DNA of 60,530 nt, from contig JAJHSB010000080.1 in NCBI GenBank assembly GCA_022684035.1, positions 1 to 60,530 of the forward strand, given 5' to 3'. Below are positions 50,322 through 56,744 of the stretch, in pieces (position 1 is the first letter of the stretch; the number at the start of each line of letters is the position of its first letter). The notes under the pieces are model-generated. The model did no database searches, had not been told where the DNA came from, and was given only the letters and a program-made list of their open reading frames with translations. The stretch comes from Candidatus Acetothermia bacterium (GTDB lineage Bacteria; Bipolaricaulota; Bipolaricaulia; UBA7950). The translations under genes and the position numbers were made by a program.

Positions 50322-50503
50322 TTACCGAGGCCGCAAAGAGCGCTGAGAAAGACAAACAATAAGCACTCTGAGTCCTCTGCGTGCTTGGTGGTAAAAAAAA
50401 TAGGGAAGAATGAAAGATGGCATAAACCGCATTGTGTGAGCAATCGGTATATAGAGAGTGCAGAGATTCTGGAAATAAATAATTCTCAGTCTGCTCTGCG
50501 GTT
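50322..50503. repeat. Two tandem imperfect palindromes of the ccgcag/ctgcgg type
   Basis: ttaccgaggccgcaaagag...ctctgcgtgcttggtggtaa (50322-50394); aaccgc...gagagtgcagaga...tctgctctgcggtt (50425-50503). Confidence 0.55.
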
Positions 50504-50544
50504 AATTATCTGTTGACAAACAATCGTTCGCTTGCAAAAGGAGA

Positions 50545-51513
50545 ATGAATATGACAAATACTGTCTTAGCGGTGAAAAATCTTACCAAGATTTATGACGG
50601 ACGACGAGGGAAGAAAACCATTGCTGTCGATGATATCAGCTTTTCTATCAGAAAGAATGAGGTTGTAGGACTCCTCGGCCCAAACGGTGCTGGCAAGACG
50701 ACAACGATCAAGTGCATCTGCACATTGATCAACCCCACGAAGGGCACGATTAACGTCAACGGCACTGATGCAGTAAAGAATTCGCGTACCGTCCTGCAGA
50801 AAGTGACGGCTGTTTTAGAAGGGAACAGAAATATCTACTGGCGGCTCTCAGTGCGGGAGAACCTGGAGTTCTTCGCTGGTCTCCAAGGTATCCCTGCCCG
50901 CCGAGTGCAGAACTATATCGATCAATTGATCGAGTTGTTTCAGCTCAAAGAAAAGGAACAGACCCCGGCACGCAAACTCTCCCGCGGAATGCAGCAAAAG
51001 TTGGCCGTTGCCTGTGCATTGGTTAAGCAAACTGATATCTTGCTTCTCGATGAACCTACATTAGGTCTCGACGTGGAGATATCGCACGAATTGCGCTTCG
51101 CATTAAAAGAGATGGCCCAGCAGGGCGAGCGGACGATCATCGTCTCGAGCCACGACATGAGCGTAGTGCAGGACATTTGCGAGCGAGTGATCATCATCAA
51201 TAATGGGAGAATCGTCACCGACGATCGGGTGGCAAATCTCTTGAGACTGTTCCAGGCCAGTGCTTATCGTTTCGAGATCGAAGGCCGACTGGCCGAGCAG
51301 CAGGTGAAGCGACTGGAGGAGCGGTTTGAGATGCTCAAGGTCAGCGGAACCGACTACCACACCGAGATCGAAGTAGATCTGGAAGATGGCAACCAGATAT
51401 ACGAGATCATGGATATATTAAAAGAGGGCGACAGTCGCATAAGGTCAATCGCGCGCAAAGATCCGAACATGGAAGAGATATTCCTCACAATTATCAAAGG
51501 AAGCAAACAGTGA
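50545..51513 (+). CDS. ABC-2 type exporter ATP-binding protein
   Basis: GPNGAGKTT, LSRGMQQK, LLLDEPT, SSH. Confidence 0.93.
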   Translation: MNMTNTVLAVKNLTKIYDGRRGKKTIAVDDISFSIRKNEVVGLLGPNGAGKTTTIKCICTLINPTKGTINVNGTDAVKNSRTVLQKVTAVLEGNRNIYWRLSVRENLEFFAGLQGIPARRVQNYIDQLIELFQLKEKEQTPARKLSRGMQQKLAVACALVKQTDILLLDEPTLGLDVEISHELRFALKEMAQQGERTIIVSSHDMSVVQDICERVIIINNGRIVTDDRVANLLRLFQASAYRFEIEGRLAEQQVKRLEERFEMLKVSGTDYHTEIEVDLEDGNQIYEIMDILKEGDSRIRSIARKDPNMEEIFLTIIKGSKQ

Positions 51514-52286
51514 GATACTTGGTGCTCTTTAAGACGATGTTTAAATGGGAGTTCATCATAATGAGACGATATCTGTTCAATATGCTCTCAGCGCTCATCA
51601 GTATTTACATCCTTTTCCTGCTTATCTTCTTTGGTGTGCGCACTTTGGGCGGCGGCGCACCAGGATTCGGGGGCACTCTGGACGCAATCGTCGTTGGTTT
51701 TTTAGTTTGGACCTTCGCGCTCTTCACCTATAGTAATTTTGCCTGGGGAATGATTCGTGAAGCACAAGAAGGCACACTGGAGCAGTTGTACATGTCCTCG
51801 GTCGGATTCATCTGGGTCTCTCTGTTTCGCAGCATGAGTTCTTTTCTCATCACGTTGATATTCAATATTACTTTGTTGATATTGATGATGGCTACTACCG
51901 GCCGCTGGCTCCATCTCGATGTAATCAGTCTTCTGCCGCTATTACTCCTTACGCTCGCCGGTGTTTATGGTATCGGGCTTGTAATGGGCGGGTTGGCATT
52001 GGTCTTCAAGCGGATCGAGTCGTTCCTCCAGATCTTTCAATTCGCCATCATTGGACTGATTGCTACTCCGATCGACCGGTTTCCGGTGCTGCGATTTCTG
52101 CCGCTCTCTCAAGGGTATGAACTGATCCGCCAGGTGATGGCTGAGGGGCTATCCATCGGGCAGCTTCCAACTGGCGATCTCCTGTTATTAGTGATTAATT
52201 CAGCATTTTACCTCGGGATCGGTCTGATCGCGTTCCACCTCCTGCTGAAGACGGCGAGGAATAGGGGGCTGCTGGGACATTACTGA
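51510..52286 (+). CDS. ABC-2 type permease, paralogue 1
   Basis: ~6 TM segments, EAQEGTLEQLY loop, ends RGLLGHY. Confidence 0.9.
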   Translation: MRYLVLFKTMFKWEFIIMRRYLFNMLSALISIYILFLLIFFGVRTLGGGAPGFGGTLDAIVVGFLVWTFALFTYSNFAWGMIREAQEGTLEQLYMSSVGFIWVSLFRSMSSFLITLIFNITLLILMMATTGRWLHLDVISLLPLLLLTLAGVYGIGLVMGGLALVFKRIESFLQIFQFAIIGLIATPIDRFPVLRFLPLSQGYELIRQVMAEGLSIGQLPTGDLLLLVINSAFYLGIGLIAFHLLLKTARNRGLLGHY

Positions 52287-52363
52287 TCGCCCTGTTTAGG
52301 GAGGATACGATTAGACGCTTGCAGAGAGCAGAGAACGGCCGTACATACACATAAAGGAGAAAA

Positions 52364-52609
52364 ATGGGCTTTACATGTGGGTTGATCGGCTTACCCAATG
52401 TCGGCAAATCTATGCTGTTGAACGCACTCTCTGCTGCCGGTGCCCAGGTGGAGAGTTATCCATTCTCCACATCATTTGCCAATGTCAATGTAGCAGATGT
52501 GCCGGATGAGCAGCTCGACCTTCTTGCCGCTTTCCGGAGAAGCAGAAGATCCCCACCCAATTACAGTTCCTTGATATCGCCGGCTTAGTGAGCGGAGCAA
52601 GCACGGGAG
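52364..52609 (+). pseudogene. ychF: Truncated, frameshifted ychF 5' fragment
   Basis: Copy of the ychF start with GKSML P-loop change and a 4-nt deletion (gccgctttcc vs gccgctctctttcc); homology ends at 52609. Confidence 0.9.
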
Positions 52610-52645
52610 GAGAAATGCGAGGAGGAAGGGACAGTGGAGTGACAG

Positions 52646-53440
52646 ATGAATAAGCAAGTTACTGAACTGCCGACGGCCTCCTCTGCCAAGATCCTCGCGA
52701 ACGTCGCCGAGACCGTTGCTCTGGTGGGTGGTCCGGTACTGGCAATGATCAAGTTGTCTGCCGTCTATCCCGGCGCATGGCTGATCGCTGGCATCGGCGT
52801 TCTGGCCTTTCTACTGGCAGTGCTTCTCGGTCAGGTTGGCTTCATGCGCTTGGTCACAAACCGGTGGAAGAAGCGCGCGCTGGCGCGGGGGCTACACGAG
52901 GACCAGACGCGCAAGACCTACCTGTATGCCCGTTTGATTCCCATAGGCTCTCTAACGGCCGGGGTGCTTGAGGAGACAGCGCGTTTCGCTTTGCTATCGT
53001 TGATGCTGCCATACGCCGCAGCACCTTGGATTATAGGAGTCGCCTTCGGCCTCGGTCACGGTGGAATCGAGTCTATTGTGCTCGGTCTCGCCAGCGGCGT
53101 CGTTGGTTTGCTCGACTTTCTCCTTCCCGCGAAAATGGCCGGTCTCACCCTGACCGGCGTGCGGCGGTACAGGGCGAGCGAGCACTGGATCGGAATCGGC
53201 GAACGCGCAGGAGTCACTCTCTGCCATGTCCTCTTCACACTTCTGGTAGTCCGCACCGTTCTCACCGGAAACATCCTTTGGTACTTTACGGCTATGGCCC
53301 TGCATGCAACGATGGACTTTGTTTGGGGATCAGGGCGGCTCCGGTATGGCTGGTCACTCTTTCGCTGTATGCTGGTCCCGTGGGTCACTGCTCTTGCTGG
53401 TCTTTTACTCTTGTGGGTTTCAGGCGGCTTGTTGACCTGA
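52646..53440 (+). CDS. YhfC-family intramembrane glutamic/metalloprotease (PrsW/CPBP-like clan)
   Basis: AGVLEETAR, GLGHGGIE, ER...H, ALHATMD in a multi-TM protein. Confidence 0.8.
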   Translation: MNKQVTELPTASSAKILANVAETVALVGGPVLAMIKLSAVYPGAWLIAGIGVLAFLLAVLLGQVGFMRLVTNRWKKRALARGLHEDQTRKTYLYARLIPIGSLTAGVLEETARFALLSLMLPYAAAPWIIGVAFGLGHGGIESIVLGLASGVVGLLDFLLPAKMAGLTLTGVRRYRASEHWIGIGERAGVTLCHVLFTLLVVRTVLTGNILWYFTAMALHATMDFVWGSGRLRYGWSLFRCMLVPWVTALAGLLLLWVSGGLLT

Positions 53441-53441
53441 T

Positions 53442-53464
53442 GGGGGCTGCTGGGGCACTATTAA
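53442..53464 (+). pseudogene. Orphan 3' tail of a third ABC-2 permease paralogue
   Basis: ggg ctg ctg ggg cac tat taa = GLLGHY*, the same ending as both permeases but with different codons. Confidence 0.7.
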
Positions 53465-53480
53465 CATCGGAGGTTAGACA

Positions 53481-53552
53481 TTGACCGAAGATACAGGTGT
53501 TGGGAGAGTCAAGTTCTGGGAGCAGACCTTCATTTTAAGCAGATTAAGGTAA
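53481..53552 (+). pseudogene. 23-aa ORF or gene stub with strong SD, containing the RAYT-flank-like motif
   Basis: ggagg + TTG: MTEDTGVGRVKFWEQTFILSRLR*; gggagcagaccttcatttt at 53518-53536. Confidence 0.35.
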
Positions 53553-53565
53553 GGGGGCGCGGACA

Positions 53566-54567
53566 ATGTCGGTTCAGATCCGCACACTGAGGGCCAAAGA
53601 TGTAGACGGGTTCGTGAGCTTGATGCTCATGGCCCACAGCGATGACGTCAAGCTCTTTGGGATCGACGCCGGTAAAGGCGCCGCGCAACTCCGCTCTGCA
53701 TTAACCAATCCGCTTCTCCGGGGACTGCAGGCGATCAGTGGGGCCACGGGGCGCTTCCTGGTCGCCGTGAGTGGGGGCGAGGTGGTCGGTTTAGTTGGCC
53801 TGACTGGGCAGAAGGTGCTGGAGGTGGTGGGCACGGCGGTCCATCCCGACTACCGCGGTCGGGGGATCGGAAAGGCCCTGATGGAGGCCATCCTTGCTGA
53901 GGCGCGGCGCTTGGGGCGCGATCGGGTCACTGTGGGCGTGCGGGAGGACAACCTCCCCGCGGTCCGCCTCTACGAGCAATCAGGGTTCCAGACCTACCAG
54001 CGCCTGAGCTATGTGAGTCTGGATCTTCCGTTTGATCGTAGTCTATTTCTCGCCGACGAACATGCCGCAGTCAGGCACTACCACCCGGCGGATGGGGAGC
54101 GGCTCGTTGCGGTAGAGAGGCGCGTGCTCTCGGCGGAGCATCTTCGGGTGCAAACTTCGGGGAGGTCGCGGTATGAGCCCACGTTTGGGGGAAGGCTCCG
54201 CGCGCAGCTTCTCGGCCTCAAGAGGCGAGGGCTCGTCTTGGTCGTAAGGGGCCAAGCGGTGGGCTTCGTCCTGGTCCGGGCGGACGCTTCCGCTCATGTG
54301 GGAAGGATGGAAGAGCTTCTGATGGAAAGCGAGCATGCGGAGCACCTTCCCGCCTTGCTTAAGGCAGGCCTGGAATTTTTGGAGGGAGCGGGGAAGCGTC
54401 GCTCGCTGCTCACCTTCCCTGCGGAGCAGGAGGCCGTGGGCCGAGAGATCAAGCGCCTGGGATTTTGTGAGGAGATGGCCGCTCTCATCATGGTATGCTG
54501 GCTTTCTGAACCTGCGGAGGGAGTCTTCGGGAAGAGAGTGGGGCATGAGCGAGAGACAGACAAGTAG
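53566..54567 (+). CDS. Tandem GNAT-family N-acetyltransferase
   Basis: AVHPDYRGRGIGKAL and NLPAVRLYEQSGF motif A/B; second degenerate GNAT domain. Confidence 0.88.
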   Translation: MSVQIRTLRAKDVDGFVSLMLMAHSDDVKLFGIDAGKGAAQLRSALTNPLLRGLQAISGATGRFLVAVSGGEVVGLVGLTGQKVLEVVGTAVHPDYRGRGIGKALMEAILAEARRLGRDRVTVGVREDNLPAVRLYEQSGFQTYQRLSYVSLDLPFDRSLFLADEHAAVRHYHPADGERLVAVERRVLSAEHLRVQTSGRSRYEPTFGGRLRAQLLGLKRRGLVLVVRGQAVGFVLVRADASAHVGRMEELLMESEHAEHLPALLKAGLEFLEGAGKRRSLLTFPAEQEAVGREIKRLGFCEEMAALIMVCWLSEPAEGVFGKRVGHERETDK

Positions 54568-54805
54568 GCAGTGGGATACACTGTACAGGGGAACAGAGTG
54601 CGTCTGGGGCATTGAGCCGGACCGTGTGTGTGGTGTGGAGGAAGCGTTCCGGAATCAAAACAGGCTTCTCTCATCGAAAGATGAGTGTGAGCCGTTACCT
54701 TTTGATATACTTAAAGCAGGCGACAGCCGTATAAAGGCGATCGCTCACAAAGATCCGAACATGGAAGAGATATTCCTCACAATTATCAAAGGAGGTAAAA
54801 AGTGA
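54545..54805 (+). pseudogene. Chimeric ORF: methyltransferase-like N-terminal stub fused in frame to ABC ATPase C-terminal stub
   Basis: MSERQTSRQWDTLYRGTECVWGIEPD...DILKAGDSRIKAIAHKDPNMEEIFLTIIKGGKK*; stop overlaps GTG of permease 2. Confidence 0.6.
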
Positions 54806-55905
54806 GATACTTGGTGCTCTTTAAGACGATAGTTAAATGGGAGTTCATCATGATGAGACGATATCTGTTCAATATGCTCTCATTTCTGATTAGTATGTAT
54901 ATCTTTTTCCTGCTTATCTTCTTGGGTGTACGCGCCTTGGGCGGCGGCGCATCAGGATTCGGGGGAACTCTGGACGCGATCATCGTAGGATTCTTAGTCT
55001 GGACCTTCGCGATCTCCACTTATAGTGATTTTGCCCAGGGAATGGTTCAGGAAGCACAAGAGGGCACACTGGAGCAGTTGTACATGTCCTCGGTCGGATT
55101 CATCTGGGTCTCTCTGTTTCGCAGCATGAGTTCTTTTCTCATCACGTCAATATTTATTATTACTTTGTTGATATTGATGATGGCTACTACCGGCCGCTGG
55201 CTCTATCTCGATGTAATCAGTCTCCTGCCGCTATTACTCCTTACGCTCGCCGGTGTTTACGGTATCGGGTTTATCATGGGAGGATTGGCATTGGTCTTCA
55301 AGCGGATCGAGTCGTTCATCGGGATCTTTCAATTCGCCATGGTCGGGCTGATCGCTGCTCCGATCGACCGGTTCCCGGTGCTGCGCTATCTGCCGCTCTC
55401 TCAGGGGAACGAACTAATCCGCCGGGTGATGGCCGAGGGGCTATCTATCGGGCAGCTTCCAACCGGCGATCTCCTGTTATTGGTGATTAATTCCGCATTT
55501 TACCTCGGGATCGGGCTGATTACATTCAAGCTGCTACTTAAGACAGCGAAGAATAGAGGACTGTTGGGGCATTACTGATCGCCCTGTTTAGGGAGGATAC
55601 GATTAGACGCTTGCAGAGAACAGAGAACGGCCGTACATACACATAAAGGAGAAAAATGGGCTTTACATGTGGGTTGATCGGCTTACCCAATGTTGGCAAA
55701 TCTACGCTGTTGAACGCACTCTCTGCTGCCGGTGCCAAGGTGGAGAGTTATCCATTCTCCACCATTACTACCAATATTGGTGTAGTAGATGTGCCGGATG
55801 AGCGGCTCGACCTTCTTGCCGCTCTCTTTCCGGAGAAGCAGAAGATCCCCACCCAATTACAGCTCCTTGATATCGCCGGCTTAGTGAGCGGAGCAAGCGC
55901 GGGAG
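54704..55905 (+). repeat. ~1.2-kb direct repeat, copy 2
   Basis: Matches 51412-52609. Confidence 0.95.
54802..55578 (+). CDS. ABC-2 type permease, paralogue 2
   Basis: Same length as paralogue 1; about 32 of 258 residues differ by manual count. Confidence 0.9.
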   Translation: MRYLVLFKTIVKWEFIMMRRYLFNMLSFLISMYIFFLLIFLGVRALGGGASGFGGTLDAIIVGFLVWTFAISTYSDFAQGMVQEAQEGTLEQLYMSSVGFIWVSLFRSMSSFLITSIFIITLLILMMATTGRWLYLDVISLLPLLLLTLAGVYGIGFIMGGLALVFKRIESFIGIFQFAMVGLIAAPIDRFPVLRYLPLSQGNELIRRVMAEGLSIGQLPTGDLLLLVINSAFYLGIGLITFKLLLKTAKNRGLLGHY

Positions 55906-56744
55906 AAGGATTAGGAAATCAGTTTCTCGCTGAAATCAGAACAGTTGATGCCATTCTCCATGTTGTACGTTGTTTCCGCGATGAGAATGTGGCTCACGTT
56001 ACCGGAGAATTGGACCCGGAAGGAGATATTGCAATCGTCAATACCGAACTTCTACTCAAAGACCTTGAGACATTACAGCGAACTTGCGCCACCCTTTCCC
56101 GGCAACAGAAATCCGGTGACCGTCAGATTAAAACGCGGTTTACTCTCTGCCAAACGCTCCTTGAAACTGTAGCCCGGGGTTCCGCTATCGATATAGGAGA
56201 GGTTGATTCTGATGCGGAAGCGCTGATTCGTGAACTCTCTCTCCTTACTGCCAAGCCGGTCCTCTATATAGCCAATGTCGATGATAACGGCAAGAACGAA
56301 TATTCACGCCGGGTAGAAGAATTAGGGCAGAGAAACGGAATAAGGACGATCACCATCTGCGGCCGAATCGAAGCAGAGATAGCCGAGATAGCTGTAACGC
56401 CTCTGGAGAGAAAGAGTTACTTAACAGCATGGGGGCTCGCTGAGAGTGGCCTTTCCCAATTGATTCGTGCCAGTTACGATCTGCTGAAATTGGTCACCTT
56501 CTTCACAATTGACGGACCAGAAGTCCGCGCGTGGACCGTACCACAGAATACAACGGCTCCGATTGCTGCCGGTAAAGTCCATAGCGATTTTGCCAATCGC
56601 TTCGTCCAGGCAGAAGTGATGGATGTAGAAAATCTTTGCCAATATAAGAGTGTGAAGACGTTGCGAGAAAAGGGTCTGATAAGACGCGCCGGCCGTGATC
56701 ATATTGTGCAAGATGGCGAGATCATCCATTTTATCTGTGGATAA
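55656..56744 (+). CDS. ychF: Redox-regulated ATPase YchF (Obg family)
   Basis: GLIGLPNVGKSTL, DIAGLV.GAS.GEGLGNQFL, TAKP..YIANV, AAGKVHSDF..RFVQAEV. Confidence 0.95.
   Translation: MGFTCGLIGLPNVGKSTLLNALSAAGAKVESYPFSTITTNIGVVDVPDERLDLLAALFPEKQKIPTQLQLLDIAGLVSGASAGEGLGNQFLAEIRTVDAILHVVRCFRDENVAHVTGELDPEGDIAIVNTELLLKDLETLQRTCATLSRQQKSGDRQIKTRFTLCQTLLETVARGSAIDIGEVDSDAEALIRELSLLTAKPVLYIANVDDNGKNEYSRRVEELGQRNGIRTITICGRIEAEIAEIAVTPLERKSYLTAWGLAESGLSQLIRASYDLLKLVTFFTIDGPEVRAWTVPQNTTAPIAAGKVHSDFANRFVQAEVMDVENLCQYKSVKTLREKGLIRRAGRDHIVQDGEIIHFICG

Follow-up and report, generated by a model that had tools for sequence, protein, structure and literature searches.

REP/RAYT elements and REPINs, reportedly treated by Bertels and Rainey in 2011, are known as dispersed short repeats that stand in inverted pairs around Y1-transposase-like genes. 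Integrative elements that attach at the ends of tRNA or tmRNA genes supply a replacement 3' end, such that the target remains intact and the old end is orphaned, while Campbell integrants have direct repeats on either side of their cargo. With regard to the length of shared sequence, the minimal segment that RecA processes efficiently is approximately 25-35 bp, and homology-facilitated illegitimate recombination makes its joints at 3-10 bp (PMC6382021). The locus described here, in which what appears to be the last six codons and stop of a permease gene lie directly behind a gene of another family, has something in common with each of these systems.

The window, i.e. the whole 60,530-nt stretch of DNA that was analysed (Candidatus Acetothermia bacterium, contig JAJHSB010000080.1), contains a 1.2-kb direct repeat (51412-52612 and 54704-55908, 90% identical), each unit of which comprises an ATPase 3' end, a permease, a 77-nt spacer and the 5' part of ychF. 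A frameshifted ychF fragment closes the left copy and an ATPase remnant opens the right one. Between the two is an insert of 2.1 kb with a GC content of 60-65%, compared to 48% for the genome, whereas the sister genome G003 has the order ATPase-permease-ychF without the insert. The features of the locus are listed in the table.

Table. Features of the repeat and its cargo, in window coordinates.
Feature	Position	Strand	Basis or remark
ABC-2 permease 1, 258 aa, ends ...NRGLLGHY*	51510..52286	+	ORF list, Pfam ABC2_membrane_3
13-nt block GGGGGCTGCTGGG in permease 1 tail, identical to stub 53442-53454	52264..52276	+	blastn-short
Young duplicate of resident DNA: 9-nt permease tail end (CATTACTGA), 77-nt spacer, frameshifted ychF 5' fragment	52278..52612	+	mismatch switch
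YhfC-family intramembrane metalloprotease gene, foreign, ~60% GC	52646..53440	+	Pfam PF10086, GC profile
Orphan tail (stub), GGG CTG CTG GGG CAC TAT TAA, GLLGHY*	53444..53464	+	
Permease-type 3' untranslated spacer, travels with tail	53465..53517	+	common to L019; in run X14 contigs, first part also follows intact permease ends
23-codon TTG frame, not a gene	53482..53553	+	disrupted in L019 and in one allele of run X14
RAYT-type terminal-repeat motif GGGAGCAGACCTTCATTTT	53518..53536	+	16/19 bases match window 27358; homologous copies L019:70, L020:820
GNAT acetyltransferase, 333 aa	53566..54567	+	Pfam; homologues P0004-P0007 at 72-85% identity
Truncated downstream gene	54545..54661	+	cut at same point as in L019; no Pfam match
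ATPase 3' remnant (54704-54801) and permease 2 (54802-55578), in right repeat copy	54704..55578	+	repeat alignment, 90% identity

The ATPase-permease pair is found in unrelated neighbourhoods, being placed beside a prolyl oligopeptidase and TldD/PmbA, beside a radical-SAM maturase and a thioredoxin-like gene, or beside ychF (L025/L026, L002 and G003). These varied neighbourhoods, together with a patchy distribution within the order (6 of 41 genomes), indicate that the pair is accessory and horizontally mobile. Assemblies of related populations break inside the permease 3' region at the end of contig C57 and the start of contig C94 in G003, and at the starts of L023 and L024; C57 and C94 overlap by exactly 55 nt, some 45 nt before the permease stop. 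These breaks suggest strain variation or a repeat at the permease 3' region in those populations too. A minor contig of run X1 (depth 68, compared to 1488) joins position 52157 in permease 1 to 55456 in permease 2, and would be a cargo-free hybrid permease that arose either by loss through recombination between the repeats or in a cargo-free strain. Low-depth metatranscriptome contigs from groundwater (runs X12 and X19) span the ATPase, permeases, YhfC, GNAT and right junction (window 50500-56100); the island is probably transcribed in situ, with DNA carry-over as a possible source of those contigs.

The TGA stop codon of the YhfC gene (53438-53440) is followed in frame by TGG and then the tail, such that 53441-53464 reads W-GLLGHY*. 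The third GLLGHY* that the initial annotation had placed directly after the YhfC stop is therefore present, and the codons of the three tails do differ, as it had also claimed: permease 1 ends GGG CTG CTG GGA CAT TAC TGA (52266-52286) and permease 2 ends GGA CTG TTG GGG CAT TAC TGA (55558-55578). There is no permease body upstream in the frame of the stub, that frame being occupied by YhfC up to its own stop, and a comparison of the region upstream of the stub with permease 3' regions revealed no more similarity. Read-through of the YhfC TGA into the tail, which is in frame both here and in L022, was considered and dropped, given a joint chance of 1/9, stop codons that are not the same and the lack of any supporting signal.

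Among related permeases, the ending G[LM]LGHY* is shared, in varying codons, by 69 of 80 metagenome loci and by L002 and L003, i.e. by 71 in total, and the permeases of L007, L008 and L009 end in GLLGRY*, GLLGRY* and GILGHY*, respectively. The G[LM]LGHY* C-terminus is near-universal in the family, down to approximately 30% identity, with free choice of codons. The permeases of L025 and L026, which are 77% identical, end in GGGCTGCTGGGGCACTATTGA, i.e. with the exact sense codons of the stub followed by a different stop. Since the ending is family-wide and its sense codons recur in L025 and L026, the stub is a permease gene end; it appears to be the vestigial 3' end, comprising the six last codons and stop, of a third ABC-2 permease gene of the same family. 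An exact scan of JGI metagenome contigs did not return GGGCTGCTGGGGCACTATTAA. In alignment A1 (window 51510-52286) the residues G-[LIM]-L-G-[HR]-Y are almost invariant as the very last of the family, for which there is no NCBIfam model, the conserved C-terminal motif being without a known role.

Downstream of the tail, an SD sequence and a 23-codon stub had been proposed. The GGAGG (53469-53473) and the TTG-started frame both exist, but the frame is not a gene, since it is unconserved: there is a stop at codon 3 in L019 and a 2-nt insertion in an allele from run X14. The 53441-53553 interval should accordingly be annotated without a gene. Comparison of the spacer behind the stub with the native 77-nt spacer and with the spacers of L025 and L002 revealed insignificant homology (p = 0.74, 0.08 and 0.26, respectively), and tail plus spacer gave neither an Rfam match nor a significant fold (fold z-scores of 0.12 and -0.26).

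Evidence for recombination within a tail comes from the intact permease 1. Over the 300 nt before 52277 the two repeat copies differ at 42 positions, compared to 4 positions over the 191 nt that follow (52278-52468; Fisher p = 2e-6), and position 52277/52278 is a recombination or gene-conversion boundary within the last codons of permease 1. Downstream, the spacer copies are identical at 76 of 77 positions and the ychF fragment is 94.7% identical to ychF; neutral divergence across spacer and ychF pseudogene fragment is approximately 4%, as opposed to a permease-permease dS of 0.29. This divergence contrast indicates that the segment from CATTACTGA to the ychF fragment was copied from the resident permease 2-ychF region long after the permease copies had diverged. 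The sequence annotated as ychF at 52364-52612 is therefore to be recorded as a pseudogene fragment. The density of mismatches between the repeat copies peaks just before 52277, with 13 in 48 nt (window 52230-52330).

The sequence behind the orphan tail has relatives elsewhere. Positions 53448-54661 of the window align to L019 1-1196 at 85.7% nucleotide identity (85% for GNAT), the aligned unit extending from the tail, which forms the first 17 nt of the L019 contig, through the spacer and GNAT to the truncation point; the alignment begins at the tail because the contig itself starts within it. The last 11 nt of the truncated gene (GGAATCAAAAC), which we take to be a methyltransferase-like stub, align in L019 with the beginning of its second RAYT-type motif. 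These alignments show a module that, as read from sequence, consists of tail, approximately 53 nt of 3' UTR spacer, RAYT-type repeat, GNAT and truncated gene. Between the truncated gene and the ATPase remnant are 42 nt (54662-54703) for which no match was found, although they correspond in length and position to a RAYT-type leader, of which they may be a decayed remnant.

The native position of this module was revealed by sediment run X14. Three of its contigs, with 47-60 nt of permease per contig, have ...CTGCTGAAGACGGCGAAGAATA (...LLLKTAKNR) immediately before 53442, followed by the tail and the start of the spacer, and one of them (661 nt) reaches GNAT. In this 661-nt contig, the 3' coding sequence of a permease (60 nt, with 93% identity to permease 1) runs through ...GGGGGCTGCTGGG into GCACTATTAACATCGGGGG... 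and on into GNAT, the joint being 52263->53442 with 13 nt that fit either side. In other contigs of the same run, what follows the permease end is another spacer allele, L019-like and with a TAG stop. The run X14 evidence thus indicates that the normal context of tail, spacer and following GNAT module is directly behind an intact permease, although it consists of short Logan contigs (88-972 nt) from a mixed community, in which strains are unphaseable and chimeras possible at repeats. The proposal that the cargo derives from a homologous ABC-2 locus with other genes behind the permease is borne out by these contigs and by the L019 module. Run X14 also contains a YhfC variant (93.6% identical) that shares the left junction and has an unchanged stub as far as 53469, beyond which the sequence is unrelated and resembles a repeat found in L019. 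On the run X14 comparisons, three arrangements among close relatives have no sequence in common other than the 28-nt block 53442-53469. No other joints at the tail were seen in runs X7, X8, X10 and X11.

The YhfC gene was absent from the 183 other genomes of the class. It is 87% identical at the nucleotide level and 78% at the amino acid level to that of L022, a Dehalococcoidia genome, and the only other clade of this YhfC comprises L022 and L021. L022 shares synteny with L002, a related Dehalococcoidia genome that has genes for a radical-SAM/SPASM maturase, a PqqD-like protein, an ATPase and a permease, and the L022 YhfC (L022:596-1464) occupies the place of L002 5040-9207, starting within a few nucleotides of the ATPase start codon. 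The L002 5040-9207 region holds the ATPase, the permease and three further genes, and YhfC is situated downstream of a decayed radical-SAM/SPASM peptide-maturase cluster; one peptide-immunity device may have replaced another. A sequence encoding GHY*, GGGGCACTATTAG, is found 26 nt past the stop codon of the L022 YhfC, where approximately 2e-4 would be expected in the gap; GHY* occurs 7 times in the whole genome. From the comparison of L022 with L002, this YhfC again stands where an ATPase-permease pair would be, followed by a tail vestige. The TGG at 53441-53443 probably corresponds to the TAG stop codon of the L022 YhfC, with which it aligns. The two junctions differ, however, since here the tail abuts the YhfC stop region, whereas in L022 the tail is reduced to 13 nt and is preceded by 26 unrelated nt. 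A single ancestral YhfC-tail junction cannot explain both, and independent events or later rearrangement must be assumed. Homology between the stretch from YhfC stop to vestige in L022 and the L002 permease 3' end was insignificant (p = 0.32), and that between the YhfC 5' UTRs of this genome and L022 was marginal but insignificant (p = 0.07).

Taken together, we consider it probable, at roughly two chances in three, that the stub has no function and is a recombination scar where two separately circulating modules meet, the permease body having been exchanged by recombination resolved in the tail. In this genome the permease body before the tail is replaced by the ychF fragment and the foreign YhfC, and the change point is the 13-nt identity between stub and permease 1 tail, which bounds exactly the 1,178-bp difference from the run X14 form; either an insertion in this genome or a deletion in the run X14 form could have produced that difference. 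The segment comprising the 3' part of the tail, the 77-nt spacer, the ychF fragment and YhfC would have entered by recombination with a long homologous anchor in the permease and a second crossover in the short conserved tail. The tail may be conserved as DNA because GLLGHY* is conserved as protein, and would then be the last homology island before unrelated downstream DNA. The same two tails could recombine again, deleting the YhfC segment and giving a permease that ends in the stub. Joints of this type would need no dedicated recombinase, and the RAYT-type repeats at the edges of the GNAT module probably account for its excision. An identity of 13-28 nt in the tail is short for RecA-dependent exchange, which counts against this explanation; anchored recombination resolved in the tail fits the published limits for RecA and for illegitimate joints.

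The strongest of the other explanations is that RAYT (Y1 transposase) or REP-type elements cut and pasted the GNAT module, with the tail as a passenger from the donor flank. A RAYT-flank-like motif after the stub had been recognised by the initial annotation and was confirmed. The match of 53518-53536 to the window 27358 copy (GGGGTCAGGCCTTCATTTT, 47 nt upstream of a MARPLRLE* relic) assigns it to the RAYT-leader family of the genome, and the distance from the motif to the GNAT start codon is the same as that from the 27358 copy to the relic. The family has 7 copies in the genome at three or fewer mismatches, compared to 0.2 in shuffles, most of which precede MARPLR... (Y1 transposase-like) ORFs and relics by approximately 47 nt, and inverted pairs surround RAYT relics at C43 and C44. 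The possibility that the likeness was due to chance, which had arisen from a test with the sub-motif TTTAAGCAGAT, was overturned by the 16/19 match and the genomic excess. In L019, direct copies at 70 and 1186 flank GNAT and the truncated downstream gene, and in L020 direct exact 13-mers (GGGGTCAGATCTT, at 820 and 1948) flank a GNAT homologue and a truncated methyltransferase. Homology between the window and L019 stops inside the right-hand motif (54661 / L019:1196), and at 53526, within the left-hand motif, one allele of run X14 departs from the window sequence. Three Y1_Tnp matches are present in the genome, all on other contigs. Since copies flank GNAT and homology ends within the motif, the edges of the GNAT module can be regarded as marked by RAYT-type repeats, and the tail joint as unmarked. 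Against this, no RAYT ORF was found in the cargo, and a 78-aa relic in L019 has no Pfam match. Moreover, the abutment of YhfC on the tail, the 13-nt joint identity and the divergence switch in the permease 1 tail are left unexplained. Element-mediated transfer is unlikely as an explanation of the stub; with regard to the other seams it is compatible with tail-resolved exchange, which it does not replace.

Genome-wide, the repeat family GGGGTCAGG(T/C)CTT... has more than 15 copies at four or fewer mismatches, compared to 2.7 expected, with family copies at window 27358 and 53518, C36:5921, C43:5339/5628, C44:4729/4938 and C10:10162. The right-hand copy in L020 is partly duplicated in tandem (CATGAACTTGGGGTCAG twice).

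Slightly less likely again is a history in which the mosaic of YhfC, orphan tail and GNAT was built in a donor and entered by one Campbell-type crossover, the run X14 contigs being later tail-tail deletions. The 1.2-kb direct repeats, with their complementary truncations, fit a single-crossover product, and deletion between 13-nt direct repeats is mechanistically easy. However, divergence is uneven, with a sharp switch in the tail from the permease dS to the low values of spacer and ychF fragment. Furthermore, the ychF fragment is resident DNA, which places the formation of the YhfC junction in this lineage. At least two spacer alleles follow permease ends in run X14 (one being the L019-like allele with the TAG stop), and these cannot all be deletion products. 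An outgroup test with G003 gave a pattern only half as expected from a single Campbell crossover.

It is also conceivable, though doubtful, that the conserved tail and 3' spacer act as a recombinase-free 'hinge', across which front genes (ATPase-permease, YhfC) and rear cassettes (GNAT, RAYT-type and others) are exchanged repeatedly between lineages via short homology. The idea derives from the observation that every family member keeps approximately 20 nt nearly identical at its very end. If true, the tail would amount to an integron-like slot for peptide-immunity genes that works by homologous recombination, and the recurrent combination of this rare YhfC with tail vestiges, here and in L022, would represent the gene-for-gene replacement of immunity devices.

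Slightly less probable than this is the initial annotation's proposal of a variable slot with repeated cassette swapping, in which the permease 3' end would be the attachment site of an unrecognised site-specific recombinase and swaps would stack tails. Three tails are indeed present within 3.3 kb, close relatives have alternative neighbours on both sides of the 28-nt tail block, L022 versus L002 constitutes a second case, and the L019 and G003 contigs break at or near the tail. Yet none of 80 other family loci contains an orphan short-frame tail, this YhfC or this GNAT, and a dedicated slot of general use was not observed. No recombinase gene is adjacent to the locus, the neighbours being RecJ, SecF, NrdD, NrdG, an ABC pair, YchF and a MacB-like ABC system, and the absence of significant structure or an Rfam match at tail and spacer also argues against an attachment site. 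To that extent the earlier statement that there is no recognised recombinase stands, but it has to be qualified, since RAYT-type repeats edge the GNAT module and 13-28 nt of shared sequence explain the tail joints. Moreover, the tail is conserved as amino acids with codons free, not as a DNA site. The expected clustering of breakpoints was seen in or at the tail here and in L022 versus L002, but homology breaks just as sharply near the ATPase start in the L027/L028/L032 group. Homology between related loci commonly stops within a few nucleotides of the stop codon, even at 85-93% identity, and ends of homology at gene boundaries are what purifying selection on boundaries gives; the break between L046 and L075 is a deletion of the convergent neighbouring gene, and L036 differs from L034 by a 1.8-kb insertion. 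Finally, a chance likeness of the stub to the permease tails over 21 bases, short as the match is and although named at the outset as a possible refutation, is refuted by an expected GLLGHY* count of 2e-6 in the 2.1-kb cargo by composition, by the presence of even the looser motif G[LIVM]LG[HR]Y* in just 2 of 20,000 cargo shuffles, by a six-frame translation of the 1.56-Mb genome in which all three occurrences of GLLGHY are at this locus, and by the recurrence of tail and spacer elsewhere, behind intact permease sequence.

Read as a scar of tail-resolved exchange, the stub orders and dates the events by which the island was built, and the cargo proves to be mosaic, made up of two or more modules that each have their own history: elsewhere, the YhfC module occurs in Dehalococcoidia, and the GNAT module is normally found behind a permease. 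The locus provides a natural example of a protein-conserved C-terminus that makes a DNA island in which recombination between diverged loci resolves. Additionally, the RAYT-type repeat family should be weighed when other seams in this genome are read.

Comparison with the known systems places the feature as follows. With REP/RAYT elements it shares repeat copies, here at the edges of the GNAT module, but the copies in the cargo are direct, they enclose no transposase and the tail joint itself lacks the motif. With respect to attachment sites at tRNA and tmRNA ends, the orphaned old end is similar, whereas there is no integrase, no DNA-level core and no tandem array in 80 other loci. The likeness to Campbell integrants extends to the inner truncations (ychF 5' on the left, ATPase 3' on the right); the strongly uneven divergence of the repeats and the extra orphan tail differ, such that one crossover of one circle is insufficient. 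The feature is of a kind already known, i.e. an ordinary scar, unusually clearly documented, with no new mobility mechanism. In the account given in PMC6382021, homology-facilitated illegitimate recombination similarly inserts foreign DNA and leaves a short duplicated gene end as its scar, and the arrangement cited there from de Vries and Wackernagel 2002, a long anchor with a very short second joint, is matched here by the permease (~90% identical) and the 13-28 nt of the tail. As far as that account goes, the present case, which is known from sequence alone, differs in that its joint is the protein-conserved GLLGHY* block rather than random microhomology.
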